Source of the DNA: Candidatus Poseidoniaceae archaeon
Lineage (GTDB): Archaea; Thermoplasmatota; Poseidoniia; Poseidoniales; Poseidoniaceae
Length of the DNA stretch: 64,000 nt
Assembly (NCBI GenBank): GCA_949372875.1
Contig: CASIAW010000005.1
Location: forward strand, 98,586 to 162,585
Direction of reading: 5' to 3'
A program made the position numbers and the translations under genes. The notes under the pieces were generated by a model. That model was not told the DNA's origin. It made no database searches and was given only the letters and a program-made list of their open reading frames with translations. Positions 24,573-42,339 of this stretch are shown piece by piece. How positions within the stretch are numbered: position 1 is the first letter of the stretch; each line of letters starts with the position of its first letter.

Positions 24573-24581
24573 TGCGTCACC

Positions 24582-25439
24582 TCATTCGTTTTTCCAATTT
24601 GCAGGACGCTTGTCGAGAAAAGAAGACAGTCCTTCTTGTCCTTCTAGTGAGCCTCTCATGCGGCTGGTAAAATCAAGAGTAAACTCTCGTAACTCTGTAT
24701 CACTGCCAGTCCATCTGTCAAATTCAAGTGTCAATTCCTTCGCCAGTGTAATGGCTTGAGGACCGGTGCCAAGGATTTCTTCTACCAATTCATCGACCGC
24801 AGGTGATAGTTCATCGATTGAATCGACAACTGCTTCTATGAAGCCAATCCGAAGTGCTTCTTCTGACTCGATACGGCTGGCTTGCATGGCGAGTCGCCGG
24901 AAACAAGCGGAGCCGAGTCGCCGATACACATAGGGCCCGATTACAGCAGGAAGTATTCCGAGTTTGCCTTCCGACAACGCAATTTTGACATTCGATGTCG
25001 CAATGACATGATCAAGACAGGCGACAAGACCAGCACCGCCGCCAAGTGCAACACCTTGAACTGCTCCAATCGTGAAGCATGGGTGCGACCATAATCCGTT
25101 GAACAAACGGTCAAGGCGTTCTGAATCAATTCGGTTTTCTTCGGGAGTATTCGCTCCTGCATCACGCATCATGTTGATGTCAGCGCCTGCACAGAAATGC
25201 CGCCCTGCTCCGGAAAGCACGAGTGTTCGAAGATAAGAGGCACCGTGAGTATCAGTAAGTGTTCCTTGAACACCCACGCTTCGTTCAGCAGTCCAGTCAA
25301 AAAGCGTGCATAATTCAGTGATCATTTGAACATTGAGTGCATTGAACTTCTCTTCCCGGTCGAGTTTGATATGGCATCGTGAATCAGTAATCTCGACGGT
25401 CACCAATTCGGTTTGCGGTGGTTTATCCATTATTTTCAT
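24582..25439 (-). CDS. Enoyl-CoA hydratase/isomerase (crotonase) family protein, embedded in the carboxylase operon (possibly methylglutaconyl-CoA hydratase-like)
   Basis: Crotonase oxyanion-hole motif LSGAGRHFCAGADI. Start set at the internal ATG (MKIMDKPP) so that it does not overlap the upstream carboxyltransferase gene. Confidence 0.7.
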   Translation of the reverse strand: MKIMDKPPQTELVTVEITDSRCHIKLDREEKFNALNVQMITELCTLFDWTAERSVGVQGTLTDTHGASYLRTLVLSGAGRHFCAGADINMMRDAGANTPEENRIDSERLDRLFNGLWSHPCFTIGAVQGVALGGGAGLVACLDHVIATSNVKIALSEGKLGILPAVIGPYVYRRLGSACFRRLAMQASRIESEEALRIGFIEAVVDSIDELSPAVDELVEEILGTGPQAITLAKELTLEFDRWTGSDTELREFTLDFTSRMRGSLEGQEGLSSFLDKRPANWKNE

Positions 25440-25482
25440 GTTAAAAACTCCAATTGCATTTTTAATTTTTAAATTGAAATAT

Positions 25483-27099
25483 CTACATTCTAAATACGCC
25501 AAATCTATCGTTTGGCATTGGCGCATTACGGGCGGATGCTAAACACAAACCGAGAACATCCCGGGTATCTCTCGGGTCGATTATACCATCGTCCCAAAGA
25601 CGAGCGGTGGAATAATACGGGCTCCCTTCAGTTTCATACTTCTCAAGAATCGGGGCTCGGAACGTATCCAGTTCCTCTCCCGCCATTGCTGAAAGTCCTT
25701 CTCGAGCTCGTTGATCTTGTTTCACCGTTGTCAGAACATCCGCTGCTTGAGGCCCACCCATAACCGAGATTCGGCTATTCGGCCACATGAATAGGAAACG
25801 AGGATCGTAAGCTCTCCCGCACATTCCGTAATTCCCTGCGCCGTGAGAACCACCGATGATAACGGTAAATTTAGGAACATTGACGCAAGAAACTGCAGTG
25901 ACTAATTTGGCTCCATCTTTGGCAATGCCTCCAGCCTCATACGCTTTACCAACCATGAATCCTGTGATGTTCTGTAGGAAGACGAGCGGTATGCCTCGTT
26001 GACCACAAAGTTCAACGAAATGAGCACCCTTCAGAGAGGATTCAGAAAAGAGGATTCCATTATTGGCGACAATTCCGACCTTGTGCCCGTGGATGTGTGC
26101 GAAGCCGCAAATGAGAGTAGTGCCGTAGCGAGATTTAAATTCGTGGAAACGAGAACCGTCAACAATTCGAGCAATGATCTCTTTGATGTCAAACGGAGTT
26201 CGATTATCGCTTGGTATTAAGCCAAGTAAGTCATTCACATCATGCGAAGGAGGTTCAGGGGCTGCACTGGCAGACGGAGCGAGCGTACGAGGACCAAGGT
26301 TTTCTACGATGTTTCGAACCATTCGTAGTGCTTCATTTTCGTCTTCAGCAAAGTGGTCAGCTACGCCGGATTGCGAAGTGTGGACATCAGCGCCCCCCAA
26401 CTCCTCAGCTGTAACTTCTTCACCCGTTGCTGCCTTGACCAATGGAGGCCCTGCGAGGAAGATTGTGCCATTTCCTTTGACGATAATTGACTCGTCACTC
26501 ATCGCTGGAACATAAGCGCCTCCAGCGGTACAGGAACCGAGAACTGCAGCGATTTGAGGAATTTTATCACCTGACATACGTGCCTGGTTTCTGAAGATTC
26601 GTCCGAAGTGCCCAATGTCTGGAAACACTTCATCTTGCATTGGTAGGAAAGCCCCGCCGGAATCGACCAGATAGATGCAGGGGAGATGATTCTCATGTGC
26701 AACCGTTTGCGCCCGAATGTGCTTCTTAACCGTCATTGGGTAATAGGAGCCACCTTTCACTGTTGCATCATTCGCAACAAAAAGGCACTCACGTCCGTGG
26801 ACCAAACCAACGCCGGTCACAATTCCAGCAGAATGGGCACGACCGTCATACAAATCAAAAGCGGCGAGTGGAGAGAGTTCCAAAAACGCGGTCCCAGGGT
26901 CGATAATACGCTCAATTCGCTCGCGTGCAAGGAGTTTATTTCTACCTCGATGACGTTCAACATATTTGCTGCCCCCTCCATTCGAAGCGATTGCTAAGCG
27001 TTCTTGCAGAGTATCGAGGAGTGATTGATTGAACTGCTTGTGTTCTGCGAACTCTGGGTCGCTGCGATTCACACGGGTAGGTAATCGGTCCATATTCAC
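25483..27099 (-). CDS. Acyl-CoA carboxylase carboxyltransferase (beta) subunit, methylcrotonyl-/propionyl-CoA carboxylase beta-like
   Basis: N-terminal [22 protein letters not shown] and two carboxyltransferase half-domains. 538 aa. Confidence 0.85.
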
Positions 27100-27168: not shown

Positions 27169-28557
27169 TCAAACGCCGAGCATGAGACGACCAATGTCCC
27201 TTAATCCAGGTGCTAATCCAACAATGAGAACAGCTAAAACAATCAAAATACGGATATGACGTTGTCTCTTTTCCACTTTCATCTCGATGAACATCCAAGT
27301 GATTGCTCCAACTAAAGCTGCTTTGAGCAGTACAAACAGCCATGCCCCTTCGCCAAACTCAATGCCGAGCATTGAATTTAATTCTCCACCGTAAAGAATA
27401 ACTTGGTTACTTACAACATGTTTCTCACTGTATCCAAAATAATCAATTCCAACCATGGTAGCAAATCCATCGCATAATTGGCCGAAAACCATGGCGAGGA
27501 CCATTGGACTAGCGAGCAGAGCATTTCTCGAAAGCATGGCGACGGGATGATGATCGACATGATCTCCAGCATCTTCCCATGCTTTGGTGCTGATGCCTTC
27601 TGGTAGAACCCCTGCCTCATAGCCGGTTAATTTCATTTGAAGTGCGTCCTCAGCACCGCGCCTATACATTGCAATACAAACCAGTCCCGGAATTCCGAAA
27701 ACAACGAGAACCGGCCACCATGCAATTGATTCTGAAACTCGAGAACTCTCTTGAGCCCACGGCGTAGCAAGGAATTGAACCCAATGAGCAAAACCAAGCA
27801 TACTTGCAGAGGCGCCAAATGCAAACATTCCTCTGGTGATTGCTGGCCACCCTCTGGTTCGGATGATGACGCCAGTTAAGACGATGAACGATAGAACCAA
27901 ACCGGCGTAGATCCAAAACATTCCGATGCCCTCGTGCGTGATGTATGCAGGTTGATACAAAAAAGCCCAATGGAAAAACAACATGAGAAATAAAATTGGA
28001 AGAAGCGCCTTACGAATCTTTACTTCGATTCTATCAGATGTCTCACCATCCCATTGTGATGCAAGGAATTGAGAGAGCCCTGCAACAACCACAAGCCAAA
28101 GTGCGAGGTGAAGATGGATTACCGGTGAGATGAACAACCAATCCATATCAGAACTAAAGAAATCCGCGTCTTCTAGAACTCGCAAGACTGGTGCAAGGCA
28201 CACCCAAGTTAGGAGCGCTAGAAGCATTCGATCGTCTGCTGGAAAATGAGCTCTACGAAACAAGGCTTGTAGAACCAGAACGCTTGCAAGCATACTGAAT
28301 GTGTAAAGCAAGGTATTCAACGGATTATAATCAGCATCTCCAGCAGAACCTGCATCTTCCATAATCGGGTCCCAAACTATTGGTTTAAGACCATCTGTCC
28401 AAACGAAATCGTTGGCAAAAACAAAACCAAGAATGAAGGCAATACTGCAGGCAAAGGCAACCCAAAGCGTACCTTTCTCTAATGGAGAATAAGTCTCTGA
28501 AGGCAAAGAAGGATGTTCTGATGCCAACTGTTGTTCAAGTTCTTTGAGACTCGTCAT
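27169..28557 (-). CDS. Polytopic integral membrane protein, function unknown
   Basis: 462 aa with at least 10 predicted hydrophobic helices. No catalytic motif recognised. Confidence 0.5.
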   Translation of the reverse strand: MTSLKELEQQLASEHPSLPSETYSPLEKGTLWVAFACSIAFILGFVFANDFVWTDGLKPIVWDPIMEDAGSAGDADYNPLNTLLYTFSMLASVLVLQALFRRAHFPADDRMLLALLTWVCLAPVLRVLEDADFFSSDMDWLFISPVIHLHLALWLVVVAGLSQFLASQWDGETSDRIEVKIRKALLPILFLMLFFHWAFLYQPAYITHEGIGMFWIYAGLVLSFIVLTGVIIRTRGWPAITRGMFAFGASASMLGFAHWVQFLATPWAQESSRVSESIAWWPVLVVFGIPGLVCIAMYRRGAEDALQMKLTGYEAGVLPEGISTKAWEDAGDHVDHHPVAMLSRNALLASPMVLAMVFGQLCDGFATMVGIDYFGYSEKHVVSNQVILYGGELNSMLGIEFGEGAWLFVLLKAALVGAITWMFIEMKVEKRQRHIRILIVLAVLIVGLAPGLRDIGRLMLGV

Positions 28558-28644: not shown

Positions 28645-29475
28645 TCACTCTTCTTCTTGAGAAAGACGAGCAACGAGGTCTGCTTTCTTGCCGCCAACTG
28701 GTAAGCCCGCTGCCTTGCAGCGTTCCTTGAGTTCAGCAACTGAAAGAGAGGAGAGGTCTTCACCCTCGTCATCACTAGCATCTTCTTCAACACCGAAGCC
28801 ACGTGGTTCGTGAACTTCGATAAACGAAACTTTACCGCATTCAATAGCATCACGAATTGTGGTGACCAAGCGGAATTTGAGCATTGCAGCGTTGGTATCG
28901 AAAAGCATTGTTTGAGGCAATACGATTGAAAGGTCGTCTCCAGAGAAACTAACCTCAAAACCAGAATGCCCGGTGTTTGCTTGGAGAAGAGCAGTGACTT
29001 TGTCTTCTTTACCCTCGACAACATCAACGACATTGAAGGAGTATTTGAGGGATTTACCAGCCATAGGATGGTTATAATCGATTCGTGCACGACCTGCTGC
29101 AAGATAAGAAAGTTGACCTTGACGACCGTTAATGGTCACGGGTGCACCAATGTAGAGTGCGTTCGGGTCTTGGACTGCTCGAATGAGTTTGTCGATGCTG
29201 ATTGTTTCGACTTGTTCTGGGTCTTTTTCACCATAGGCGTCTTCTGGAGCGATGACGATCTCGGTTTCTTTGCCTTTCTTAGCTTCTCCGAGTGCTGCTT
29301 CAAAACCTGGAATAAGTTGGCCACCGCCGACAATACAAACCATTGGTTCGTAGTTACGACCCTCTTGGTGAGATTCATGTTCCTTGGCGACTGCTTCACG
29401 GGTTGTCTCGATGAGATCCCCTGTTTCATTGTTGTAAAGTTCATAATCAACGTGGACTATTGTTCCATCTTCCAT
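28645..29475 (-). CDS. Long-type archaeal FKBP peptidyl-prolyl cis-trans isomerase (SlyD/FKBP26-like)
   Basis: MEDGTIVHVDYELYNNETGDLIETT... FKBP fold with insert-in-flap region. 276 aa. Confidence 0.75.
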   Translation of the reverse strand: MEDGTIVHVDYELYNNETGDLIETTREAVAKEHESHQEGRNYEPMVCIVGGGQLIPGFEAALGEAKKGKETEIVIAPEDAYGEKDPEQVETISIDKLIRAVQDPNALYIGAPVTINGRQGQLSYLAAGRARIDYNHPMAGKSLKYSFNVVDVVEGKEDKVTALLQANTGHSGFEVSFSGDDLSIVLPQTMLFDTNAAMLKFRLVTTIRDAIECGKVSFIEVHEPRGFGVEEDASDDEGEDLSSLSVAELKERCKAAGLPVGGKKADLVARLSQEEE

Positions 29476-29545: not shown

Positions 29546-32170
29546 TCACTCTTCCTCCATGGAAGTAGTGTTTATGGCTTTTCGTCGGTCGTTTTTGAAA
29601 ATGTCACCCAGAACGACCACACCCATTCCGATGAGCATTGTTGTCCAGCCGAGCCACACCAGATGGGAGGCTGGAAGGTCGTAAATGGTGACTCGGACGA
29701 TTTGAACAGACTCTGAACCATTCTGCACTGTTTGTTGCATCAAACCATTTGCTTGGCTACCGTCGAAAATGAAAACAATATCCCCACTCCACCGAGTGAG
29801 TGTATCGACTTCTGAACGGGACCTAGACTGCAACACAAATCCAGAATCTGTCGTTGTATCAAAACGTAACATGCCCGGTTCAACCGTTCCGATTTTCTCA
29901 CCAACAGCACCTTGTTCAAGTTCATATACGTTGATTTGGATACCAACATAGCCATCACCAACCTCTAGGTCCTCAGATGTTAAGCGTAAACCTGTAAATT
30001 CGTAGCCATAATTTCCGCTAAGGACAATTTCGTCTTTGACCATCGTTACTCGATGACTCGCATCACCTCTATCGACAAGTACTGTTGTGTATACATGGCC
30101 AATGAGCAGCAAGAGAAGACCGAGATGAACCAAGTGGGCTCCGAAAGGTATACGCTTCCATAGAGGGGTTTTCGGCCGCTCAATTCCTTGGGTAATTATT
30201 ACTTCTTTGATCATTGGAATCACTACCAAAATGAGGAGAGGGAGTGTGAGCCAAGCAAGAACACCACGAACAAGAAGCGTCGACATAGCAGTGCTAGAAT
30301 CCATTCCAAAAGCAGTGGGTTGCCAAATGGCTAACAGAACTGAAAGCAACAAAGTACCAAGCAGCAGGTTCGCATTCCTCTTCGCCTCATGCCGGCGGTT
30401 GGAATACAGGAAAAGAGCAGCGGTGAAAGCCATCACAAAGGGAGTACCATACAATTCGTGTCCCTCGAAATTAATTGCATCAATGCTTGAGAGAAGGAGA
30501 ACTAATGTCAAAATCAAATATGTTCCAACAACCAATACTGAGGCCCATAAAGCCATAACTTGTTGGGATTTTTTATCGAAGAAAGAAAAGGTAGACTCAT
30601 CTTCGGATTCTGGAGCAAGAAGCCATGGAAGAATGAATAACAGCATGATGACACCTGCTGAAACAAGTTCAATCATCCCAGACCATGCACCAGCCAATCC
30701 AAGCATGACTCCAGCTGCACCAAGTGCCCATTGTTTCGTGGCATCTTCCGCAAAAAACAATGGCGTGAAGAATACCAAAAAGAAGGCAGTATAAAGGAAA
30801 TTACCAGTCATTCCAAACATGAGAAGAGAGATGAAAATTAAGACGACAAGCGATAAGTATGCAGGTCTCTTCTCGTTCTTTTGAATCATACCTAAGAAAC
30901 TCCAACCGCCGTATTCCGGTTGATTTACACTCTTTCCGTAGCGAAATTCAAGACAGAGTGGTGCAAATAAAACCAACGAAAAGGCAAATGTTGGTACTGA
31001 AGCATAGACCGCAGGATCAAAGGAAACCGAGCAAGATTGGAGTGAGGAGCCGCAAGACTGGTTAAAGTAAGCATTCAGAATTAAAGCCAATACCACGCCA
31101 ATGACAGGTATACTGAAGAGGCGAAGAGAAGAAACGTGTGGCTTCCAATCCTTATTTGAACTACGCTGTAACTGAAGCCAAAAACCCATGAAGAGCAGGA
31201 GAAGGAGAAGATAAGACATAACTTCTACTCCAGCAGTAGCATCGGATTTGAGAACCATCATCCGAGAAAAAGCATCTGCAGGGGCAGTGCCTTCCGAATC
31301 AGTGACAAAGGTATGAACTGAAGAAGCCCAAACACCGCCGGCTCGAGTAACGAGCGTTGCAAAAAGAGCAAGGCCTCCTGCTGCTAAACCTGCCCCTATC
31401 CAAGTGTTTTCCGAGGTTTTGCCTGGACGAGTACGAAGATGGGACATGAAAACTAAAGCAAGCCAAGGCAACATAGAACCTGTTTCGACAGGATCCCAGG
31501 CCCAATAACCTCCCCAATCAAGAATCAGATAGGCCCATAACCCACCGAGCCCGATACCAAGAGTTGAGACAAACAGACCTGGCCGAACAATACTCAGCAT
31601 GCGATCTTTAATCCCACTTGCATCGGCAAACATCGAGGAAAGAGCGACACAACTGATGTGCAAGCAAAGGGAATATGCGAGAAAGATAAGAGGGGGATGG
31701 ATGACCATGAGGTCAGTTTGAAGTAATTCGTTCAAACCCTGTCCCATTCCAGTTCCAGTGCTTTGTTTGAATGGTTCGAGATTCAACGCAAGCAGCAGAA
31801 TGAGCAGATTGAAGCCATAGACTAATCGGAGTCGGAGAGGGTAGGTCGAAGTGATATTTTCTCCAGCCATAGGTTGTCTCCAGATATAGGCCAGTAATGT
31901 CATCCACATCACCCACAAGAGCAAGGGCCCTTCACGTGCAGCCCAAGTTGCCGCAAACCGATATCGGAGTGGAAGATCTTCGCCCCCATACGAGACTACG
32001 TGGGCAAATGAGGTGTCATTGACGAGAAAACGACTCGCAAGAGCAAAAAAAGGAACGGCCATGAGAACATGGCAAGTGATGAAACCAAGTTTCGATTGAC
32101 GCTGGAGTAATGGGCGAATCAACAATACTACTGCGGCGAGGATTGCAAGCCACATTGTAACCCCCCACAT
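29546..32170 (-). CDS. ccmF: Cytochrome c-type biogenesis protein CcmF-like (heme lyase, WWD family) with a C-terminal extension of about 200 aa
   Basis: Tryptophan-rich WWD motif WGGYWAWDPVETGSMLPWL. At least 14 TM helices. 874 aa, versus about 650 aa for typical CcmF. Confidence 0.65.
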   Translation of the reverse strand: MWGVTMWLAILAAVVLLIRPLLQRQSKLGFITCHVLMAVPFFALASRFLVNDTSFAHVVSYGGEDLPLRYRFAATWAAREGPLLLWVMWMTLLAYIWRQPMAGENITSTYPLRLRLVYGFNLLILLLALNLEPFKQSTGTGMGQGLNELLQTDLMVIHPPLIFLAYSLCLHISCVALSSMFADASGIKDRMLSIVRPGLFVSTLGIGLGGLWAYLILDWGGYWAWDPVETGSMLPWLALVFMSHLRTRPGKTSENTWIGAGLAAGGLALFATLVTRAGGVWASSVHTFVTDSEGTAPADAFSRMMVLKSDATAGVEVMSYLLLLLLFMGFWLQLQRSSNKDWKPHVSSLRLFSIPVIGVVLALILNAYFNQSCGSSLQSCSVSFDPAVYASVPTFAFSLVLFAPLCLEFRYGKSVNQPEYGGWSFLGMIQKNEKRPAYLSLVVLIFISLLMFGMTGNFLYTAFFLVFFTPLFFAEDATKQWALGAAGVMLGLAGAWSGMIELVSAGVIMLLFILPWLLAPESEDESTFSFFDKKSQQVMALWASVLVVGTYLILTLVLLLSSIDAINFEGHELYGTPFVMAFTAALFLYSNRRHEAKRNANLLLGTLLLSVLLAIWQPTAFGMDSSTAMSTLLVRGVLAWLTLPLLILVVIPMIKEVIITQGIERPKTPLWKRIPFGAHLVHLGLLLLLIGHVYTTVLVDRGDASHRVTMVKDEIVLSGNYGYEFTGLRLTSEDLEVGDGYVGIQINVYELEQGAVGEKIGTVEPGMLRFDTTTDSGFVLQSRSRSEVDTLTRWSGDIVFIFDGSQANGLMQQTVQNGSESVQIVRVTIYDLPASHLVWLGWTTMLIGMGVVVLGDIFKNDRRKAINTTSMEEE

Positions 32171-32233
32171 GGGTCTTGGTCGTGATGCTCCCTCAAGGAG
32201 GTTGCGCGTGTTCTAAGTTCAAACCACAGCGGA

Positions 32234-33481
32234 TTACCAACCGAAAAACTTCGCTCGAGAATAGCCGAAAGAGAGAAGCACATGAATGACGCTTTTCGTG
32301 AATAACATTGGCTTGCGGAAAAGTATTTTGAATCCAATTCCCACTTTTTGTAAAGGAGACATGTTTCCGAGTTCTTCAGGTAAACAATGCGCCATAACAG
32401 ACATTTCATCGTCCGTAAGTTCATACAGCGCAGTTTTTCCTTTCAAGATTTTAGAATAAGGAGGGAATGTTTTCTTCCATGCCTTTTCATAATCCATGAG
32501 CTTCTCTTTTGAGAGGTGAGAATCTGATGCCATCACAGACGCAATCGTTTGGGCTGCTTGTCGACCCGACCATAGAGCCAAGTGCGAACCACCTTCAAAC
32601 AGCGGAGAAGTGAAACCTGCAGCGTCGCCAACAAGAATCAAACCGTCACCTACGGTAACAGATCGCGGGCCTGAAATCGGAATCGTCCCGCCAAAGGGTC
32701 GAACTTTGATGCCATCCGCCCTCCATGGAGGGTTTACGGTTGGCTTGCCATCCAAATAGGTGTCTTCAATGAACGAATTAAGATACTTGATTGCTCCCTT
32801 TTTATCGGTTGTCACCAAGCCTACATTGGCCCGGCCTCCTTCTTTCGGAATCATCCAGACGTAGCCGTGCGGAGAATACTTTGGCCAGATGTAGAAATCT
32901 AAGTATCCATCGTTTTTGACATCCAGCATTTCATATTGGAACCCTGCAATGACTTCAACTTCAGTGCCCATGTCAAGGAGTTTTGAGGCAGCACCAGAGA
33001 CACCTGATGCATCAATCACTGATTTACATTCCAATGGAAATCCGTCCCCCTTGCCATTAATTTTCCAATAGGAAAATTGATTCTCGCTATTGAAAATTCG
33101 TTCCATAGAAGTCACGCGATGATGGAGTTTTAACTCTGCGCCTTCTTTGATGGCTTCCTCACATAGCCAGCGTTCAAAGAGATGTTTTTCAAGCACGTAT
33201 CCTTTCTCAGTGAGAAGCTTTTCAGTGCCATCAGGAAATATGACTCGAATGCCTTTCACATCGAGTGCTTTTACGTGGTCTGGTATCTTTAAATCGAGGT
33301 TTTCAACAGCCAATTCGCTCAAGCATTCACCGCAATGAACAGGAGTTCCAACTTCTGGATCTGCTTCAACAATGAGGGTGGATAAACCAGCTCTTGAGGC
33401 ATGAAGTGCAGCAGAGCCACCACCGGGCCCGGCTCCAATGACTAGGACATCATACATCTTCGGTCCCTCCGCCATGTGCAT
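32234..33481 (-). CDS. Geranylgeranyl reductase (FAD-dependent; digeranylgeranylglycerophospholipid reductase family)
   Basis: FAD-binding MYDVLVIGAGPGGGSAALHASRAG and the GGR-family Cys (PVHCGE). 415 aa. Confidence 0.8.
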   Translation of the reverse strand: MHMAEGPKMYDVLVIGAGPGGGSAALHASRAGLSTLIVEADPEVGTPVHCGECLSELAVENLDLKIPDHVKALDVKGIRVIFPDGTEKLLTEKGYVLEKHLFERWLCEEAIKEGAELKLHHRVTSMERIFNSENQFSYWKINGKGDGFPLECKSVIDASGVSGAASKLLDMGTEVEVIAGFQYEMLDVKNDGYLDFYIWPKYSPHGYVWMIPKEGGRANVGLVTTDKKGAIKYLNSFIEDTYLDGKPTVNPPWRADGIKVRPFGGTIPISGPRSVTVGDGLILVGDAAGFTSPLFEGGSHLALWSGRQAAQTIASVMASDSHLSKEKLMDYEKAWKKTFPPYSKILKGKTALYELTDDEMSVMAHCLPEELGNMSPLQKVGIGFKILFRKPMLFTKSVIHVLLSFGYSRAKFFGW

Positions 33482-33527
33482 CTACCGGAGAATCAAGTCC
33501 ATGAAAGAAACGGTCAAAACCACTGGT

Positions 33528-33998
33528 TCAATCCTCGTTAGGACGATGGAGAACTGCGACAAATGCCAGCAACGTGATCGAGGCTGCGAATGATACGGAG
33601 GGAGTTTTCTCCGGAATTTCCTCCTCCTCTTCAATTTCAGAGATGGGAGCCGGAGCTGGCTCAACGGTGATTAATCCGACCATTCCCACACTTTCATGCG
33701 GCTCGCAAACAAACTGATATGAACCGGCCATGCCGACTTCAAACTCAAACCGGTAATCAACATCTCGTGCAGGTTCTCCAGAGTCAAACAACCCACTGTC
33801 TTCGACAGCGTTGTGAGGTAGTGCTTGACCACCCCAAACAAATCGAACTGCTTGTCCCTCCTCGAGAGTGACTTCTGAGGGGTTAAACCGCAGATTTGTG
33901 CTGTCAACAGTGATGATGACATCGTTTGCGGACTCTTGAGCGGAAGCGAGTCCAGTGCTGCAGATGAGCAAGAACAGAGCGAAGAGTGTGCTTTTCAT
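33528..33998 (-). CDS. Halocyanin/plastocyanin-like blue-copper protein (cupredoxin), secreted
   Basis: Start set at the internal ATG giving signal peptide MKSTLFALFLLICSTGLASA. Type-1 copper ligand pattern ...PHNAV...CEPHESVGM (H, C, H, M). Confidence 0.65.
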   Translation of the reverse strand: MKSTLFALFLLICSTGLASAQESANDVIITVDSTNLRFNPSEVTLEEGQAVRFVWGGQALPHNAVEDSGLFDSGEPARDVDYRFEFEVGMAGSYQFVCEPHESVGMVGLITVEPAPAPISEIEEEEEIPEKTPSVSFAASITLLAFVAVLHRPNED

Positions 33999-34109
33999 GA
34001 GTTGCCACACTCGATGGAGGTTTTCAATGCATGTATTGCAAAGCAGTGCATTTTTGTCGCATGTGAGCGAATACGACGGTTCAAAGGTAGGTTCCGTAAC
34101 GGAAGGTCG

Positions 34110-36071
34110 ATGGCGTGGCGTACTTCCAAGCGATGGCTCAACCATCTTGAGCAGCGCGGTGAGTTGTTGAAAATCTCTCGACCGGTTGACGTCCAATTTG
34201 AAGCCGGTGCGATTGCAGACCTGTTAGTCAAGAATGACGGCCCTGCGGTTCTCTTTGAACAACCTCGACTGCCAGATGGTTCGATAAGCGAGATACCACT
34301 GGCCATGAATTTGTTTGGCGGCCAAGACAGGACCCTTCGTGCACTCGGTGCAAGCCATGAGACCGAAATCGGAGACCGAATGGTTGCGATGATGAAGCCT
34401 GACATTGGCCTCTACATGCGCAAACCGTGGAAAGGACTCCCTCTTGTACGAGATGCATTAGCAATGCCTCCAAAAAAGAAGCGAAAAGGGAACTGTCAAC
34501 GCGTGAAATTGCCTCTTGACTTAACGAAACTCCCAATCCCGACGACATGGCCAAAAGACGGTGGTCCGTTTGTTACTCTTCCATTGGTCGTCACAAAGAA
34601 TCCTAAGAATGGAGAGCACAACCTTGGCATGTATCGTGCTCAAGTCTTCGGTCCAAAACAGATCGGACTCCATTGGCAAATTCACAAACATGCTGCAGAC
34701 CATGCTGCAGCCATCAAAGATTCAGGTGGGGACGGACGTATGCCCGTAGCCATTTGCATGGGCGGACCTCCTGAACTTATTTTCTCAGCCATTTCTCCAC
34801 TACCAGACAACCTAAGCGAGTATCAATTTGCTGGAATCTTAGGTCGTAAGTCACTTCCTATTACCAAAGCACTCACCCAGGATTTGATGGTCCCTGCTGA
34901 AGCAGATATTGTGATTGAAGGCTACTGTATTCCAGGCGAGACTCGACTTGAGGGGCCCTTTGGCGACCACTTCGGATTTTATTCATTGACCGGTCAATAT
35001 CCTGTGATGCACGTGACAGCCATTACGTGTCGAAAGGATGCGGTCCTTGCAGCGACCATTGTTGGCCTGCCACCGATGGAAGATGGTCATCTGGGTGAAG
35101 CAATCGGGCGCCAATTTTCTCCAGTCCTCAATTTCCAACATCGAGATGTCAGTAGCGTTCACTTGCCAATGGAAACCGGTTTCCACAATCTTGCCATTGT
35201 ATCTTCAAAACAACGCTATCCACGACAAGGAAGAAAAACTGCCCTTGGATTGCTTGGTGCAGGACAAATGATGTTCTTGAAAACGATGATTGCGATTGAC
35301 GAGGGTCAAAATCCGAAAAACTTGGAAGCGCTGTTAGATGCACTTAACTCAAAAGTCGATATTTCGACTGACGTGCTTGTTCTTGATGGAATGGTTGCTG
35401 ATTCTTTGGAAGCAGCAAGCCCCTATGAAAACGTCCACAGTAAGTTACTGATTGATGCTACGACGCTTGCCCAACGAGATCCACGCTCCGCAAATGACCC
35501 GTTGGAAGGCTCATACAGTCAAGCAACACCTGAGTGGCGTCAAGGAATCGGCAAAGCACCTGGATTCTCTGGCATTGAAGAGGTTCTCAAACTCAAACAT
35601 GTCACTGAGGCGAGAATGCTACGAGACAGCATCATGGTCGTAACGACTCATATCGAAAACACACCAACCCCTCAAGACGGTCAAGATGAGTCAAATGATG
35701 AAGCTGAAGCGGCAAGAAGGGAGCGTATTTCTCAATTGCGAAAATCAATTTGGCAATTGGATAAATCATCCTCACTTCGCTGGCTCTTTATCACCAATGA
35801 TGACCTCGATTTACACTGTGATAAAGCTCGACGTCGCCTCTTGTGGCAACTCACCTCTCGATTTGATGTTGGCCGTGGACTCATGTTTGATGAAAAGAAA
35901 GAGAGACTCTGCTGGGATGCTACGACCCCAATCCCCTCCAAACAATACGGTGTACGCAGATGGCCATCGATTACTCTGCATTCTGCTGAAACATTGGAAA
36001 AGATAGCACAACATCCTGAATTAGAATCATATGAGTGGCCCCCCCACCTCTCTTTCGGGGGACCGAAGTGA
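34110..36071 (+). CDS. ubiD: UbiD-family (prenylated-FMN-dependent) decarboxylase with a C-terminal extension of about 160 aa
   Basis: UbiD-like N-terminus (MAWRTSKRWLNHLEQRGELLKISRPVDVQFEAGAI...) and core. Start moved to the ATG at 34110 (ORF opens at 33936). Confidence 0.75.
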   Translation: MAWRTSKRWLNHLEQRGELLKISRPVDVQFEAGAIADLLVKNDGPAVLFEQPRLPDGSISEIPLAMNLFGGQDRTLRALGASHETEIGDRMVAMMKPDIGLYMRKPWKGLPLVRDALAMPPKKKRKGNCQRVKLPLDLTKLPIPTTWPKDGGPFVTLPLVVTKNPKNGEHNLGMYRAQVFGPKQIGLHWQIHKHAADHAAAIKDSGGDGRMPVAICMGGPPELIFSAISPLPDNLSEYQFAGILGRKSLPITKALTQDLMVPAEADIVIEGYCIPGETRLEGPFGDHFGFYSLTGQYPVMHVTAITCRKDAVLAATIVGLPPMEDGHLGEAIGRQFSPVLNFQHRDVSSVHLPMETGFHNLAIVSSKQRYPRQGRKTALGLLGAGQMMFLKTMIAIDEGQNPKNLEALLDALNSKVDISTDVLVLDGMVADSLEAASPYENVHSKLLIDATTLAQRDPRSANDPLEGSYSQATPEWRQGIGKAPGFSGIEEVLKLKHVTEARMLRDSIMVVTTHIENTPTPQDGQDESNDEAEAARRERISQLRKSIWQLDKSSSLRWLFITNDDLDLHCDKARRRLLWQLTSRFDVGRGLMFDEKKERLCWDATTPIPSKQYGVRRWPSITLHSAETLEKIAQHPELESYEWPPHLSFGGPK

Positions 36072-36991
36072 TGGATGCGAAACAAATCCTGTCTTTCATT
36101 AAAATCGAACACACACTGTTCTCTCTACCATTCGTTCTCATTGGCTATATGATTGCCATAGAACAGTTCAACATCTCACCGGGTATTGACTTACTCTGGA
36201 TTCTTCTTGCTGCTGTGGGTGCACGAGGCCTAGCAATGGCTCTCAATCGAATCATTGACCGAGATATTGATGCTGCTAATCCTCGTACAAAAGACCGTCA
36301 TCTCGCTTCTGGAGCAATGAGTCTGCGTACTGCATGGACGCTTTCGGCTTTCTTCTTCTTTATGCTACTTGTGAGCGCTGGCATGCTCAATACCGTCGCA
36401 CTCATGATGTCGTGGCTACCTGTTCTTGTCTTCGTCATCTACCCCTACATGAAAAGATACACCTGGCTGTGCCATTTCTGGCTTGGTCTTTGCCTGGGTC
36501 TTGCCCCTGCAGGTGCTTGGGTGGCCATGGCTGCAGACGTGCATGGATGGGCAGCCATAACTGGAATGTTCGAAAATGAAACCGTATTTTTGTGGTCAGC
36601 AACAATACTACCTATTTCGTTGGGAGTTGCATTATGGATTGCCGCTTTTGACATCAATTATGCTCGCATGGATGTCGAGAATGACCGTAACAGCGGCATA
36701 CACTCATTCCCCTCCCGATTCGGCGAAGATCTGACAACCCGTGCTACGGTTCAATTGACGCTTGTATGGTTTGCATGTTTTGCCGTCTCCAACCCGATGG
36801 ACGGGGTTTGGTTTCTCGCTGCCGCTGGATTGATGGCAGGGTTGAACATTTGGGTTGTCTTAGCAAAAAACAAGTTTGAAGACTTTCAAACGGTTTTATT
36901 CCGAGCCTCAATGTTGACCGGATGGATGCTTCTGTTTGCACTCATCATCGGTTTCATGCTGGAGCCAAGCGCTGAAGGAATGTTGGACTGA
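36071..36991 (+). CDS. ubiA: UbiA-family aromatic prenyltransferase (4-hydroxybenzoate polyprenyltransferase-like)
   Basis: Asp-rich motif NRIIDRDIDAANPRTKDRHLASG, 8-9 TM helices. ATG overlaps the ubiD stop by 1 nt (TGATG). Confidence 0.8.
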   Translation: MDAKQILSFIKIEHTLFSLPFVLIGYMIAIEQFNISPGIDLLWILLAAVGARGLAMALNRIIDRDIDAANPRTKDRHLASGAMSLRTAWTLSAFFFFMLLVSAGMLNTVALMMSWLPVLVFVIYPYMKRYTWLCHFWLGLCLGLAPAGAWVAMAADVHGWAAITGMFENETVFLWSATILPISLGVALWIAAFDINYARMDVENDRNSGIHSFPSRFGEDLTTRATVQLTLVWFACFAVSNPMDGVWFLAAAGLMAGLNIWVVLAKNKFEDFQTVLFRASMLTGWMLLFALIIGFMLEPSAEGMLD

Positions 36992-37077: not shown

Positions 37078-37455
37078 ATGAACCCTATTGTAAAATCACT
37101 GCTTGAGTTTAATGAAGCCTTTGAAATCCCAAAACTCGATTCTCCAGGACTCGGAACAGATGAAATGATTGAACTGCGAATCAAATTACTTCGCGAAGAA
37201 GTAGAAGAATACGCAGAGGCTGCTCGGGCGGGCGATATGGTTGAGGTTCTCGATGCGCTTGCAGACATTGGCTACATTCTCGGTGGAACCATCATCAACC
37301 ATGGTATGCAGAAGATTTACGATGATGCATTCAATGAAGTTCATCGCTCAAACATGGCGAAACTGGTTGATGGAAAGGTCATTCGACGTGAAGATGGAAA
37401 GGTGCTCAAACCAAAAGGTTGGCAACCACCGCAACTCGCTCAATTCCTCGAATAA
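37078..37455 (+). CDS. MazG-like nucleoside-triphosphate pyrophosphohydrolase (all-alpha NTP-PPase / HisE-like)
   Basis: EEVEEYAEAARAGDMVEVLDALADIGYIL matches the MazG/HisE EExxE...D metal-binding helix pair. About 125 aa. Confidence 0.55.
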   Translation: MNPIVKSLLEFNEAFEIPKLDSPGLGTDEMIELRIKLLREEVEEYAEAARAGDMVEVLDALADIGYILGGTIINHGMQKIYDDAFNEVHRSNMAKLVDGKVIRREDGKVLKPKGWQPPQLAQFLE

Positions 37456-37554: not shown

Positions 37555-40500
37555 ATGAAGATTCAAACGCTGTTAATCGTATTGATGCTAACACTTTCTG
37601 GTTGCCTTGGACTCAATGATGCTGGTGAGGAAATCGACCCTGATGATAAATTTCCGAATGATACTGCGGCTTTTTACGATACCGACAACGACGGGTTGCC
37701 TGACGAACTTGATGGCCCATCAACCTCCAACCCTCCATTGATTGCTGATAGTGACGATGATAACGATGGTTTCCCTGATTCAATGGAACTCTCATGTGGA
37801 ACGAATCCGCTATTGGATACATCTTTCCCTGACGACCTTGATGGAGACTTTGAATGCGATGACCAAGATTTCGATATCGATGGAGACGGTATTTTCAACT
37901 CAGCTGATGCCTTCCCCTTGGATGCGACCGCAACTACAGACACTGACGGCGATGGAATGCCTGATACGGTAACTGGTGAATCAACCCTCACAGAAGATAC
38001 CGATGATGACAATGACGGGTGGTCTGATGAAGTTGAAACTGAATGTGGCAGCAATTCCCTGGTTGCTTCACTCACCCCAATAGATGAAAACGGCGACGGT
38101 GTATGTGATTCTGTTTCAACCGATGACGATGGAGATACATATTCTGATGACGAAGAAACACTGTGTGGTTCTGACCCACTTGACGCTTTGAGCATTCCTT
38201 CTGACCTTGACGGCGACTCTATCTGCGATGCACTGGATGAGGACGTCGATGGCGATGGAGTCTCCAACGCACAAGACATGTATCCTAGCGACGCGAGTAA
38301 ACATGAAGATGTGCCCGGATGTATTGATGAAAATGCTTTCAACCACGACATTGGTTCAAACCTCGATGATGGTTCTTGCTTTGGCCCCGAAGAAGCACAT
38401 TCCATGATGTCCGAATTTATGGAAAGCGGTACATGGCACTTTACTACAGAGCAACAAGAAGAGATGGATGAAGGCGAGTTTTATCTGATTCAATCCCTCT
38501 TTGTCAATGATGCTGAGAATGATACAACACTGATTAGTCAAGTGGTCTTGGACGATTCCGGGGAAGAAATGTTCAGCATCAGCTTATTGGCTAAAGATGG
38601 CATCATTGAACTGCATCAATATGCTGATGTTTATTTGGAAGAAGAAGGCCAAACCATTACCATGGATGATGCAGTGCTCATTCACGACCAAATTATGACG
38701 AGTCCTTTCATGGAAGAGAGTGAAACGTGGTATCATTGTGAACAAGATGTGAGCAGTGTATGGTTCTGCTCGAGTTCCTATTTCTTTACCGTGGGTGAAG
38801 AAATTTCTCTCTTCGACTGCGATGATGGAAGTCAGATATATATCTCTCAAGTCAACGATGGCATGACTGACTGCGCAAATGATGAAGACGAACCGAAGTA
38901 TGATGAAACAGAATACAGCGAATTTGAGTGCGACACTGGCGAATATATCTACCTCTCTGAAGTCAATGATGGAAGTCCTGATTGTCCGGCAGGCGATGAT
39001 GAACCAACTTATGACCCAATTACACAGGAAGAAACCTCTAATTTCGAATGTTATGATGGCAGTACAATCCCCCTTTCTTGGGTGAATGATGGAACATATG
39101 ATTGTCCTTACCAGGCTGATGAACCATACTATGAATCTGAAGAAACTTCCGAATTTGATTGTAATGATGAAGTAGATACAATTGCACTTTCCTGGGTCAA
39201 CGATGGATACGAAGACTGCCAAGACGGTTCTGATGAATCAGAGTATAGCGATGCCACTGGCAATGCAGACAGTGCAACAGATACTCTTCACCTGTTTACA
39301 TGTGATGATGGAACTATGATTTTAGCAGAGTATGCTAACGATGACAACAACGATTGTTCTGACGGTTCTGACGAAGCACAAAGTACAGAAGCGACAACGT
39401 ATGAATGTAAGAATGGTGAAGTAATTGACTTTAGCCTTGTCAACGATCAATCAAAGGATTGTACTGATGGTTCTGATGAACAATATGACTTCCAATGCGA
39501 GAATGGAAATTCCATTCCGCTCTCATATGTGAACAATGGATACTCGTACTGTGAAGATGGTTCTGACGAACCTGAGTATGAGGAAGGTGAAGAACTTTCG
39601 ATGTATGATTGCGCTGATGGAAGTCAAGTTTTCCTTTCAACGGTGAACGATGGAAATGATGACTGTAGTGATGGAACTGACGAAAACCCTACGCATCTTG
39701 ATTATGTTGAACTGGTATACTTCTCATGTGAAGAAACTGATTCCGAAATTCCTCTCAGCCTCGTGAACAATGGGGAAGAAGATTGTCAAGATGGTTCCGA
39801 TGAAGCGGAATATGACAGTATGGGTAATGAAATCTCTGAGTATTACTGTGAAGATCCAACGACTTTCGACGAAGAAGATGAAACAGTAATCAACCTCAGT
39901 CAAGTGAATGATGGTACAGAGGACTGTGCTTTTAGCTGGGATGAATGGACATATGTGAGTGAAAACTGGTTCGGAATGGAACGTGATAATGAAGAAGAGT
40001 TGAACGGTGATTGCCAAATTGATGGCGAGGATTTCTTTGTCCCATGGGTCTTCGTGAACGATGGTGATGATGACTGTGATAACGGCGATGATGAACCATC
40101 TTACGACAGTTCTGGCATGGAGACTTCAACAATGACATGCTGGAGTGGCGATATTATTGCACTTTCTTTGGCCAACGATGGCAACAACGATTGTCCCGAC
40201 GGAGATGATGAAATACTCTACATGTATGTGGTTATACTTGAAGGACAAAGCAGTTCTGGAGAAAACTGGTCCTGCATCATACCCTTTGAATACCTCAATG
40301 ATGGAGATGGAGATTGTCAAGGGTACGCCGATGAACCTGAGTATGATAATGGAGAAGAACTTACTTTCTTCGAGTGTGATGATGGAACCCAAATATATCT
40401 CTCTCAAGCAAATGATGGCCTGGCTGACTGCGCAAATGGAGAAGATGAGCCTACGTGGGAAGAAGTAGAATACTCTGAATTTGAATGCAATACTGGCGAT

Positions 40501-42339
40501 TACATCTACCTCTCTAAAGTCAATGACGGAAGTCCAGATTGTCCGGCAGGCGATGACGAACCAACATATGACCCCATAACACAAGAAGAAACTTCAACTT
40601 ACGAATGCTCTTATGATGGCAGTACAATTCCTCTTTCTCAGGTGAGTGATGGAACCTATGATTGCCCTTATGGAGAAGATGAACCGTATACAGAGGAGGA
40701 GGATACTTCTGAATATGAGTGCGCTGATGGTGCGTATACAGTTCCGACCTCCTACATAAATGATCGATATGAAGACTGTGATGATGGTTCCGATGAACCC
40801 GAGTATGACCTCGAGGAAATCAGTGTATTCACATGCAATGATGGAATTGAAATCCCATTGTCTTCGGTAAACGATGATTTCAGTGATTGCTCTGATGGAA
40901 GTGATGAGCCAAATAATTTCGAATGTCTCGATGGTTCATCTCTCTCATGGTACTGGGTAAATGATGGATATGAAGACTGTCAAGATGGTTCTGATGAATC
41001 CGATATTGATTATGTAGGAAACTATGTTTGTCAAGATGGAAATGAAATTCCAATGCAGAATCTTAGAGATGAGTATGCGGATTGTAATGACGGGTCGGAT
41101 GAAATCTACTTCGATGATACTTTTGAAGAATGTGACTGGGATATCGACGATAATATGTGGGCATGCTCTGGAAGTCCAATGCCCGATGGTACATGGAGTT
41201 GGGTCATTGAGAGCGACGGTAGTTGGGCAATTACCTTAGAGCAATCTTACGATACATACTTGATCCTCATTACTCCGGAAATGACCATCAAATCGGTCAC
41301 CAATTACTTCGAAGATGACGACAACTCAGAGACGTATACTGCCGGTCTTGGTGGACATGTTATGTCCCTCAACATGGAACTTAGCGATGCTGCTCCTCCG
41401 TTTATGGTATATTTCGAAGGTATTCCAATTTCCTCAGGCGATGATACTTTCGAATGTGACGATGGGGCATTCATTGCCTTCTCATCCATTAACGACGGAA
41501 ATGAAGATTGCTCTGAAGGTGAAGATGAGCCTCAATACGAACAAAATGAAATTTCCGAGTGGAAATGCGTCACAGGTGAAGATGATGAATGGCTTTGGCT
41601 CTCTCAGGTATCTGATGGCACTCAGAATTGTCTCGATAATTCTGACGAGGACATAACGGCACTCTTTGAGTGTAATGACGGTTCAACAATTACCATCGAG
41701 ATGGTAAGCGATGGAACGAACGATTGTGCAAATGCGGAGGATGAGCCTACGTATGAACAAGGAGATCAAGAGGTTTCTGAGTTTGATTGTTATGATGGTG
41801 AAGAGATTATTCGACTTTCTTGGGTGAATGACGGATATGCTGATTGTGAAGACGGCTCAGATGAAAATCTTGGTGAAGGACATGGACATGGCATGTATGG
41901 AGTATCAACTCTCGGTTTTTCTTCAGAAATGGAAATCATTGAATGGAACGGTGGCTCTCTCACCGACTCAACGAGTGCTGACGGAATGGACCTCGTTCTT
42001 TCAATGTGTGATTCCTTTTCCCACCAGTTCACCGACGAATACATGCTTGTTTCCGAATGTGGTGCTGATGTTCAGCGATGGTCTCTTGCAGATATTTTTG
42101 CAGGGCAAGTTACTGGAATTGAATTTTATGATACTGATGAAAGTGGAACACTCACCGATGGTGACATGTTTGAAATTACTGAAGATCTTGACAATAACCT
42201 CGAATGGAATGCTGTTCGCCTAGCGAAAGGTTCTGCCTACGCAGATGAGAATCCTGAAGTTGTTCTTCCTGGTTTCACAGCTGCTCTTGGCATTATCTCA
42301 ATGCTTGGAGCTGCTCTTCTTGTCCGCAAGAACGAGTGA
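37555..42339 (+). CDS. Giant (1594 aa) acidic surface lipoprotein. Lipobox signal peptide, thrombospondin-type-3-like Asp repeats, about 24 tandem LDL-receptor-class-A-like calcium-cage modules, C-terminal PGF-CTERM archaeosortase sorting signal.
   Basis: MKIQTLLIVLMLTLSGC (lipobox). DTDNDGLPDELD, DSDDDNDGFPD, DTDGDGMPD (TSP3-like DxDxDG). Repeated modules of about 45 aa with consensus [FY]xCxDGSxIxLSxVNDGxxDCxDGSDEPxY. C-terminus LPGFTAALGIISMLGAALLVRKNE (PGF + TM + basic). Confidence 0.85.
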   Translation: MKIQTLLIVLMLTLSGCLGLNDAGEEIDPDDKFPNDTAAFYDTDNDGLPDELDGPSTSNPPLIADSDDDNDGFPDSMELSCGTNPLLDTSFPDDLDGDFECDDQDFDIDGDGIFNSADAFPLDATATTDTDGDGMPDTVTGESTLTEDTDDDNDGWSDEVETECGSNSLVASLTPIDENGDGVCDSVSTDDDGDTYSDDEETLCGSDPLDALSIPSDLDGDSICDALDEDVDGDGVSNAQDMYPSDASKHEDVPGCIDENAFNHDIGSNLDDGSCFGPEEAHSMMSEFMESGTWHFTTEQQEEMDEGEFYLIQSLFVNDAENDTTLISQVVLDDSGEEMFSISLLAKDGIIELHQYADVYLEEEGQTITMDDAVLIHDQIMTSPFMEESETWYHCEQDVSSVWFCSSSYFFTVGEEISLFDCDDGSQIYISQVNDGMTDCANDEDEPKYDETEYSEFECDTGEYIYLSEVNDGSPDCPAGDDEPTYDPITQEETSNFECYDGSTIPLSWVNDGTYDCPYQADEPYYESEETSEFDCNDEVDTIALSWVNDGYEDCQDGSDESEYSDATGNADSATDTLHLFTCDDGTMILAEYANDDNNDCSDGSDEAQSTEATTYECKNGEVIDFSLVNDQSKDCTDGSDEQYDFQCENGNSIPLSYVNNGYSYCEDGSDEPEYEEGEELSMYDCADGSQVFLSTVNDGNDDCSDGTDENPTHLDYVELVYFSCEETDSEIPLSLVNNGEEDCQDGSDEAEYDSMGNEISEYYCEDPTTFDEEDETVINLSQVNDGTEDCAFSWDEWTYVSENWFGMERDNEEELNGDCQIDGEDFFVPWVFVNDGDDDCDNGDDEPSYDSSGMETSTMTCWSGDIIALSLANDGNNDCPDGDDEILYMYVVILEGQSSSGENWSCIIPFEYLNDGDGDCQGYADEPEYDNGEELTFFECDDGTQIYLSQANDGLADCANGEDEPTWEEVEYSEFECNTGDYIYLSKVNDGSPDCPAGDDEPTYDPITQEETSTYECSYDGSTIPLSQVSDGTYDCPYGEDEPYTEEEDTSEYECADGAYTVPTSYINDRYEDCDDGSDEPEYDLEEISVFTCNDGIEIPLSSVNDDFSDCSDGSDEPNNFECLDGSSLSWYWVNDGYEDCQDGSDESDIDYVGNYVCQDGNEIPMQNLRDEYADCNDGSDEIYFDDTFEECDWDIDDNMWACSGSPMPDGTWSWVIESDGSWAITLEQSYDTYLILITPEMTIKSVTNYFEDDDNSETYTAGLGGHVMSLNMELSDAAPPFMVYFEGIPISSGDDTFECDDGAFIAFSSINDGNEDCSEGEDEPQYEQNEISEWKCVTGEDDEWLWLSQVSDGTQNCLDNSDEDITALFECNDGSTITIEMVSDGTNDCANAEDEPTYEQGDQEVSEFDCYDGEEIIRLSWVNDGYADCEDGSDENLGEGHGHGMYGVSTLGFSSEMEIIEWNGGSLTDSTSADGMDLVLSMCDSFSHQFTDEYMLVSECGADVQRWSLADIFAGQVTGIEFYDTDESGTLTDGDMFEITEDLDNNLEWNAVRLAKGSAYADENPEVVLPGFTAALGIISMLGAALLVRKNE

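Follow-up and report, generated by a model that had tools for sequence, protein, structure and literature searches.

Gene content of the locus

We analyzed a 64-kb window (the whole stretch of 64,000 nucleotides from contig CASIAW010000005.1) of a Candidatus Poseidoniaceae archaeon, in which five adjacent genes encode a CcmF-like heme-handling membrane protein, a geranylgeranyl reductase (GGR), a type-1 cupredoxin, and a UbiD decarboxylase with a UbiA prenyltransferase. The host lineage is Marine Group IIa (Poseidoniaceae), within Marine Group II or Poseidoniales. In the surface ocean, Marine Group II ranks among the most abundant archaea, and to our knowledge no member has been cultured. All five open reading frames (ORFs) lie where an earlier note on this DNA had placed them, and Pfam and NCBIfam matches identify each, indicating that the genes are real. 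Together with the FKBP gene downstream of the CcmF-like gene, they are as follows:

29546..32170, minus strand: CcmF-like heme-handling membrane protein, 874 aa, about 21 predicted helices (Pfam Cytochrom_C_asm, residues 76-261)
32234..33481, minus strand: FAD-dependent geranylgeranyl (prenyl) reductase, GGR, 413-415 aa (TIGR02032 and PF22578 GGR_cat)
33528..34001, minus strand: type-1 cupredoxin, 157 aa (PF00127, E 3e-14)
34110..36071, plus strand: UbiD-family decarboxylase dependent on prenylated flavin mononucleotide, 653 aa, closest to MqnL (TIGR03701, TIGR00148, PDB 2IDB)
36071..36991, plus strand: UbiA-family aromatic polyprenyltransferase, 306 aa, MqnP-like (TIGR01475, PDB 4OD4)
28645..29475, minus strand: long-type FKBP peptidyl-prolyl isomerase with a C-terminal SAP domain (Pfam FKBP_C, FKBP26_IF, FKBP26_C, SAP)

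As delimited mechanically, the cupredoxin (222 aa) and UbiD (711 aa) ORFs overlap one another. The starts are probably MKSTLF (cupredoxin, 157 aa) and MAWRTSK (UbiD, 653 aa), because the orthologue alignments begin there and the overlap between the ORFs then disappears. The window has an even G+C content (43-49%) and therefore shows no sign of a foreign island. Named homologues of the CcmF-like protein in a protein database search are from Candidatus Poseidoniaceae or Poseidonia, and an identical copy of its sequence occurs on ENA marine metagenome contigs, the longest of 340 kb. Rfam and tRNA scans returned a tRNA-Ile as their sole match; the window was also scanned for sigma-70 promoters and terminators, a model that is not meaningful for an archaeon.

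CcmF homology at both ends of the WWD-motif protein

In sequence searches, CcmF/NrfE models and the Thermus CcmF structure matched only the first ~300 residues of the CcmF-like protein. These matches, limited to residues 21-297, scored 119.6 bits against TIGR00353 (cut-off 569) and 122 bits against TIGR03145 (cut-off 927), and Pfam CcmF_C was undetected in the protein. Using hhalign, we compared a profile of 25 CcmF-like homologues with one of 15 canonical CcmF proteins of 650-690 aa. In this comparison residues 1-302 match canonical CcmF, and a local alignment places residues ~597-862 on canonical positions 395-663 (Prob 96.6, E 5e-10), whereas no counterpart in canonical CcmF was found for residues ~303-530 (Prob 0.1). 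Because both ends are homologous and the segment between them is not, the extra length is an internal insertion, and the C-terminal extension of about 200 aa described in the earlier note falls away. The C-terminal outer beta domain (strands at residues 707-833 in the structure model) and the last helix are retained, completing the whole CcmF fold. By alignment the protein is thus a genuine structural homologue of CcmF, the heme lyase of System I, and three of its features stand out:

31484..31516, minus strand: WWD motif, W219-E229, WGGYWAWDPVE, invariant in 25 homologues and in the orthologues of Marine Groups IIa and IIb
30581..31264, minus strand: internal insertion, residues ~303-530, with six predicted transmembrane (TM) helices, without counterpart in canonical CcmF
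29585..30382, minus strand: C-terminal CcmF-homologous part, comprising the TM-His2 helix, the outer beta domain, and the last helix (hhalign)

The four heme ligands H158 (P-His1), H244 (TM-His1), H286 (P-His2), and H682 (TM-His2) align with their canonical positions and, like the WWD motif, are invariant in both Poseidoniales families; the WWD motif, P-His1/2, and TM-His1/2 together define CcmF (PMC10663686). Another four histidines, H571 and, in the C-terminal part, H692, H706, and H836, are invariant in the CcmF-like family and lacking in canonical CcmF. Helix positions and the positive-inside rule predict all four at the outer face, with H692 ten residues outward of TM-His2 on the same predicted helix. 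The four may form an additional heme or metal site. The insertion is the least conserved part of the protein and contains no invariant His, Cys, or Met among the 25 homologues. Its helices were taken from the structure model and its topology from a positive-inside count. In Marine Group IIb the insertion appears to be shorter, judging from ORFs of ~740-860 aa and from the query residues left unaligned.

A search of 1.8 billion cluster representatives recovered ~19 full-length clusters at 50% identity (750-923 aa, >300 bits), beyond which scores fall sharply to canonical CcmF proteins that match the N-terminal ~300 residues only. This sharp drop marks the CcmF-like proteins as a discrete family. 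Relative to Thermus thermophilus CcmF (6ZMQ), the window protein carries ~220 extra residues, in six predicted helices, after the P-His2 loop, along with the four additional outer-face histidines, and its scores against the two CcmF/NrfE TIGRFAM models amount to only 13-21% of the cut-offs. CcsBA, the fused heme exporter/synthase of System II, resembles it in length (~900 aa) and in its WWD/P-His core, but the CcsBA order, with CcsB/ResB at the N-terminus and the CcsA WWD part at the C-terminus, is not found in the window protein. The protein is accordingly of CcmF type, neither CcsA/CcsBA nor specifically NrfE, and the NrfE/CcsA-type alternative named in the earlier note did not hold. This orphan, remodelled CcmF family is modestly new; the ubiD/ubiA pair, the reductase, and the cupredoxin belong to known families.

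Ccm partners and c-type cytochromes

Pfam scans of the ORFs confirmed that the 64-kb window contains no other ccm genes, as the earlier note had stated. The only ORF in the window with a CxxCH motif overlaps an L7Ae gene on the opposite strand. In 20 species loci we found neither a ccm partner nor a credible CxxCH ORF within 10 kb of the CcmF-like gene, and ~370 kb of Poseidoniales flanking sequence yielded a single CxxCH ORF of 115 aa, which is probably spurious. Around the CcmF-like gene the other loci contain the same conserved neighbors only. Canonical CcmF genes of other taxa are often located beside multi-heme ORFs, and in a Bathyarchaeia locus canonical CcmF lies beside a cbb3 oxidase with cytochrome c subunits.

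Published surveys agree with this picture. Sheridan et al. (PMC9287336) reported that PF00034 and PF01322 are absent from all Thermoplasmatota genomes, including Poseidoniales, and that the Poseidoniales oxidase was acquired from bacteria. Tully (PMC6336850) described cytochrome b and Rieske genes in Marine Group II without a canonical bc1 complex or cytochrome c1, and copper proteins are thought to serve as carriers in this group (PMC6336850, PMC9723583). In our literature searches, heme auxotrophy, futalosine genes, and ccm genes of Poseidoniales did not come up, and we found no paper discussing the CcmF-like family or this gene cluster. The earlier note had called the protein a WWD-motif heme lyase and had named a lack of c-type cytochromes as the observation that would overturn this view. 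The CcmF-type fold, the WGGYWAWDPVE motif, and the ligands stand, but the heme-lyase function is not supported, given that published surveys report no cytochromes c in the phylum and none emerged from the 20 loci.

One locus differs from the others. In L027, a metagenome-assembled genome (MAG) labelled Candidatus Poseidoniales archaeon SZUA-1158, positions 2672-4615 encode a canonical CcmF of 647 aa, in another gene context and with Pfam CcmF_C detected. Either some relatives keep an ordinary CcmF or this MAG is misclassified. The ORF upstream of it was considered as an archaeal CcmE and rejected, as neither its sequence nor Pfam gives support.

The ubiD and ubiA pair

The ubiD stop and the ubiA start overlap by one base within TGATG at 36069-36073, confirming the overlap described in the earlier note. 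The same one-base stop/start overlap (TGATG or TAATG) is present in six of ten other Poseidoniales loci, and in the remaining four the two genes are separated by a gap or joined by an overlap of at most 17 nt. The recurrence of the one-base overlap marks translational coupling of ubiD and ubiA as a conserved trait.

Pfam detects all three UbiD domains (UbiD_N, UbiD, and UbiD_C), and residues 7-452 match E. coli UbiD (PDB 2IDB; E 7e-83) with the EGP(F/Y)GDH motif aligned (EGPFGDH in the window). The protein passes TIGR00148 (361 bits, cut-off 245). Its top NCBIfam family is TIGR03701, the futalosine-route menaquinone decarboxylase, where it scores 459 bits and misses the cut-off of 495.9; the E. 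coli-type UbiD equivalog gives 289 bits against a cut-off of 788. Four UbiD orthologues from both Poseidoniales families behave alike, with TIGR03701 the top family at 464-489 bits and always under its cut-off, and the E. coli-type model scores ~285-290 bits across the lineages tested. UbiA passes TIGR01475 ('UbiA-like, other'; 225 bits, cut-off 181). The next-best models, comprising MqnP models and two 4-hydroxybenzoate prenyltransferase models, score 182-206 bits, all under their cut-offs; the MqnP models together span 156-187 bits, likewise below theirs. The closest solved relative of UbiA is ApUbiA of Aeropyrum (4OD4; E 1e-32, versus 3e-6 for digeranylgeranylglyceryl phosphate [DGGGP] synthase).

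Two other identities were tried for UbiA and ruled out: heme O synthase, for which the model gives only 56 bits, and DGGGP synthase, for which the geranylgeranylglyceryl phosphate geranylgeranyltransferase models give 40 and 22 bits and the structure match is the E 3e-6 above.

Comparison with MqnL and MqnP (SCO4490/SCO4491-type) shows both likeness and difference. Both families rank best by score, the two genes lie side by side with translational coupling, and the window proteins possess the UbiD catalytic motif and the UbiA Asp-rich motifs. In contrast, the window UbiD falls just below and UbiA well below the trusted cut-offs, UbiD bears an extra degenerate C-terminal domain, and the Pfam scan of the window ORFs found no ubiX/mqnM and no early mqn genes in the 64 kb, which also answers the question of a nearby ubiX raised in the earlier note. 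MqnP, MqnL, and MqnM were predicted to catalyze the final futalosine steps by Ravcheev and Thiele (PMC4746308), and archaeal MqnPL is sister to the ubiquinone and plastoquinone clades according to Elling et al. (PMC11874023). The assignment of the pair to a quinone head-group decarboxylase and prenyltransferase is borne out, with family scores placing it closest to the futalosine/menaquinone clade. By sequence scores the pair appears MqnL/MqnP-like, membership falling short of proof by the cut-offs. This half of the locus is thus ordinary: a coupled prenyltransferase and decarboxylase, probably for menaquinone.

The C-terminal extension of UbiD

The match to E. coli UbiD stops at residue 452 of 653, ~40 residues short of the E. 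coli end. About 200 residues remain past the match, that is, ~160 more than in E. coli UbiD, in agreement with the ~160-aa extension recorded in the earlier note.

35466..36068, plus strand: UbiD C-terminal extension, residues 453-653, a degenerate second UbiD C-terminal domain

Used as a query, this segment retrieved 69 relatives, all at least 43% identical, with Thermoplasmatota as the sole taxon name in the database search. The ubiD stop-to-stop frames in ten other loci span 628-744 codons, indicating that the extension is general in the order. Its conserved core resembles the UbiD_C motif (LRWLFITNDDLDLH...LLWQLTSRFDV...WDATTPIP). Pfam UbiD_C matches the window extension weakly (E 0.01-0.018) and matches P0183, a 184-aa homologue of the extension only, with E 1.1e-6 and 29 bits, above the gathering cut-off of 24.2. 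An AlphaFold (AF2) model of the extension alone had a pLDDT of 72.5, and its first 49 Foldseek hits are all UbiD-family structures. A profile-profile comparison of the extension with the true UbiD_C segment from the same alignment was not significant, and the domain assignment rests on Pfam and the fold search. The UbiD_C match of P0183 and the UbiD-only Foldseek hits identify the extension, at the level of sequence family and predicted fold, as a degenerate duplicate of the UbiD C-terminal domain.

Many short extension hits, together with a call of 444 + 249 aa in L001 (ENA ERZ16273744 contig_10101), suggested a naturally split ubiD, which we rejected. The L001 split arises at the equivalent of window position 35315, where a run of five A has become six in this assembly only, likely a homopolymer sequencing error, and the short 'split' ubiD gene calls stem from fragmentary contigs. 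Homopolymer errors may also account for some short 'UbiD_C' database proteins on long contigs, a suggestion based on this one locus.

The geranylgeranyl reductase and the cupredoxin

The identification of the second gene as a geranylgeranyl reductase is well founded: GGR passes TIGR02032 (166 bits, cut-off 158.8) and contains PF22578 GGR_cat. Its best PDB match, over the full length, is the digeranylgeranylglycerophospholipid reductase of Thermoplasma acidophilum (3OZ2; E 8e-43), with which the C-G-E and Y-x-W-x-x-P-K motifs align, as does the FAD motif. GGR nonetheless falls far under the Thermoplasmatales lipid-reductase equivalog (158 bits, cut-off 780); by sequence its substrate could be a membrane lipid, a quinone tail, or both. 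The earlier note had counted GGR as a respiratory-module enzyme, which it need not be, its closest relative being the Thermoplasma membrane-lipid reductase.

The cupredoxin translation shows the ligand pattern H...C-x2-H-x4-M between a signal-like N-terminal segment and a C-terminal hydrophobic anchor. It falls below the cut-offs for halocyanin (TIGR03102; 50.1 versus 93.8 bits) and plastocyanin (TIGR02656; 50.7 versus 87.85 bits), so that 'type-1 cupredoxin' is the safe name. Of the description as a secreted type-1 copper protein, 'halocyanin', the cupredoxin fold (PF00127) is thereby retained and the name halocyanin is not. The window protein shares with halocyanins and plastocyanins this fold and the H, C, H, M ligands and is predicted to be extracytoplasmic and membrane-tethered; unlike them it has no canonical lipobox and carries the C-terminal anchor instead. 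A halocyanin is highly transcribed in Marine Group IIb (PMC9723583). The position between ubiD and GGR is occupied by a cupredoxin gene in the window's own lineage only and not in L007-L026; a related cupredoxin, 53-58% identical, is located after the FKBP gene in L018 and L023. The cupredoxin gene is therefore a lineage-specific insertion in the divergent intergenic region, and the copper protein, which the earlier note counted in the block, belongs to it at this position only in that lineage.

Conservation of gene order

We searched Poseidoniales loci from a collection of species-representative genomes by tblastn with the window proteins. In every locus long enough, the order is ubiA, ubiD (core plus extension), and, divergently, GGR, CcmF-like, and FKBP. 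This order is common to Poseidoniaceae and Thalassarchaeaceae, between whose loci the CcmF-like proteins are only 31-51% identical. An FKBP gene lies downstream of the CcmF-like gene in every Poseidoniales locus with sequence there, and the gaps between GGR and the CcmF-like gene are mostly <70 nt. Most Poseidoniaceae loci continue with genes for a DUF63 protein and a carboxyltransferase; only two Thalassarchaeaceae loci do so. The neighborhood is thus not accidental, being found in both families. For the proposal of a dedicated quinone and respiratory module, the quinone pair and the conserved neighborhood hold; the copper protein lies outside the conserved block, GGR need not be respiratory, and the heme-lyase reading is not supported.

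A model of two divergent units and its alternatives

We lean, by a small margin over even, toward a model in which the locus consists of two divergent units, a quinone pair and a lipid- and heme-handling unit that includes a stand-alone CcmF-like protein. In the first unit, ubiD followed by a translationally coupled ubiA, UbiA would attach an isoprenoid tail to an aromatic carboxylate head group and UbiD would remove the carboxyl group. Since the best-matching families are MqnP and MqnL, we infer that the likely product is (demethyl)menaquinone for the aerobic respiratory chain. The duplicated degenerate UbiD domain may serve to alter or stabilise the oligomer. The second unit would comprise GGR, the CcmF-like gene, and FKBP, with the cupredoxin gene first in the window lineage. 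Here GGR would saturate the geranylgeranyl-derived chains of membrane lipids and possibly the quinone tail too. The CcmF-like protein would bind one heme b between the TM histidines H244 and H682, and its WWD motif would hold a second heme at the outer face, with H158 and H286 on either side. As no Ccm partners or c-type cytochromes are evident, we infer that it acts alone, as an outer-face heme-handling or heme-attachment enzyme on an unrecognised substrate. Outer-face heme handling independent of the classical pathway is the role that we favor for this protein. Its transmembrane heme could serve as reductant, possibly with a quinol as donor. For canonical CcmF, quinol has been proposed as the electron donor.

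Several observations weigh against this model. UbiD is under the TIGR03701 trusted cut-off in every lineage tested and UbiA is far under the MqnP cut-offs, so that a benzoquinone product from 4-hydroxybenzoate is conceivable. The closest solved relative of GGR is a lipid reductase, and its presence may be unrelated to quinones. Poseidoniaceae generally keep a stable gene order across this region, which makes synteny alone weak evidence for shared function. Our searches covered the window and the loci, and ccmABCE, ubiX/mqnM, mqnA-E, or an unusual cytochrome c could sit elsewhere. Finally, we know of no CcmF that works without heme delivery by CcmE, and a stand-alone role would be without precedent.

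These points define three alternatives. If the genes are neighbors by inherited order only, GGR would saturate lipids, ubiA and ubiD would make a quinone, and the CcmF-like protein would be unrelated to either. The resemblance of GGR to the Thermoplasma lipid reductase, by which sources also name it, fits this explanation, as do the synteny of the unrelated FKBP, DUF63, and carboxyltransferase genes in Poseidoniaceae and the divergence of the two units, which do not form one operon. The five-gene core is, however, kept in the distant Thalassarchaeaceae, where the DUF63 and carboxylase genes are mostly not in place; the short gaps between GGR and the CcmF-like gene and the entry of a cupredoxin gene into the cluster at two positions in different lineages speak the same way, and we consider a grouping by inherited order alone possible but doubtful. 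Somewhat less probable is that ubiA and ubiD make a benzoquinone, ubiquinone- or plastoquinone-like, from 4-hydroxybenzoate rather than menaquinone by the futalosine route. The missed MqnL/MqnP cut-offs count in its favor. PRK12888 and PRK12886, annotated as 4-hydroxybenzoate prenyltransferases, score as high on UbiA as the MqnP models, public records label UbiA a 4-hydroxybenzoate octaprenyltransferase, and the Poseidoniales oxidase is of bacterial origin (PMC9287336). Yet in each of the five lineages tested TIGR03701 lies ~170-200 bits above the E. coli-type UbiD model, and the Pfam scans of the window found no ring hydroxylase or methyltransferase gene nearby.

The CcmF-like protein could also belong to an ordinary System I, as the holocytochrome c synthase of a pathway whose CcmABCE and c-type cytochromes are encoded elsewhere and were missed by the surveys. 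The full CcmF fold with all four heme ligands conserved is compatible with this, in archaea System I is known to need no more than CcmABCEF, encoded at several scattered loci (PMC9084895), and the published absence of cytochrome c concerns two Pfam families only (PMC9287336). On the other side stand the 20 species loci and the 64-kb window with no ccm gene or credible CxxCH, the reports that Marine Group II uses copper carriers and has no cytochrome c1 (PMC6336850, PMC9723583), and the distance of the protein from the CcmF/NrfE trusted cut-offs, with its insertion and four extra invariant histidines. We regard an ordinary System I as unlikely and grant it what weight it has because our searches covered the window and the loci rather than the whole genome.

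Within the two-unit model we offer one wider suggestion, tentatively and as unlikely: that the CcmF-like protein is a stand-alone heme machine of archaea lacking both the Ccm system and classical c-type cytochromes, devoted to outer-face heme carriage or attachment or to a transmembrane electron route, with the extra histidines as a heme or metal site. In one version, heme may be carried or attached at the outer face to an unrecognised substrate, perhaps one without CxxCH; this would recall haloarchaeal SdhD, whose covalently bound heme is unexplained (PMC8305020). In another, the protein may pass electrons across the membrane to an acceptor on the outer face, for instance the cupredoxin, with a quinol as a possible donor. 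Strong selection maintains the remodelled CcmF family in a lineage that is reported to be without the only known substrates of CcmF. If it does work alone, the roles thought possible for WWD-type heme-handling proteins would be widened, and cofactor delivery to the outer face in archaea without System I could be explained. The conserved cluster also names the genes for a quinone test in Marine Group II.

Neighboring genes

Downstream of the CcmF-like gene, the FKBP at 28645-29475 (minus strand) has FKBP26-like IF and C domains fused to the C-terminal SAP domain. Two genes downstream, 27169-28557 (minus strand) encodes a 462-aa membrane protein with Pfam PF01889 that is syntenic in most Poseidoniaceae loci; this family, formerly DUF63, is now AliA_AliB, after archaeal lipoprotein lipidation enzymes (PMC12462473). 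An acyl-CoA carboxylase set follows at 22591-27099 (minus strand), comprising biotin carboxyl carrier, biotin carboxylase, enoyl-CoA hydratase, and carboxyltransferase, the last of which shows 76-89% identity across the loci that yielded it.

Directly after ubiA, 37078-37455 (plus strand) encodes a small MazG/PRA-PH-like pyrophosphohydrolase that was found in five Poseidoniaceae-group loci at 86-89% identity, its neighbors being far less conserved. Two giant acidic surface proteins are encoded on the plus strand: one of 1594 aa at 37555-42339, with Cys/Asp-rich LDL-receptor-A/TSP3 repeats and a PGF-CTERM-like tail (VVLPGFTAALG...), and one of 1690 aa at 7091-12163, with a CARDB domain. A metal-uptake cluster at 45146-52449 contains a Fea1-like low-iron-inducible protein, a NikR-like ribbon-helix-helix regulator, an ABC ATPase, an ABC-3 permease, and a 1146-aa ZnuA-type binding protein fused to EF-hand calcium-binding domains.

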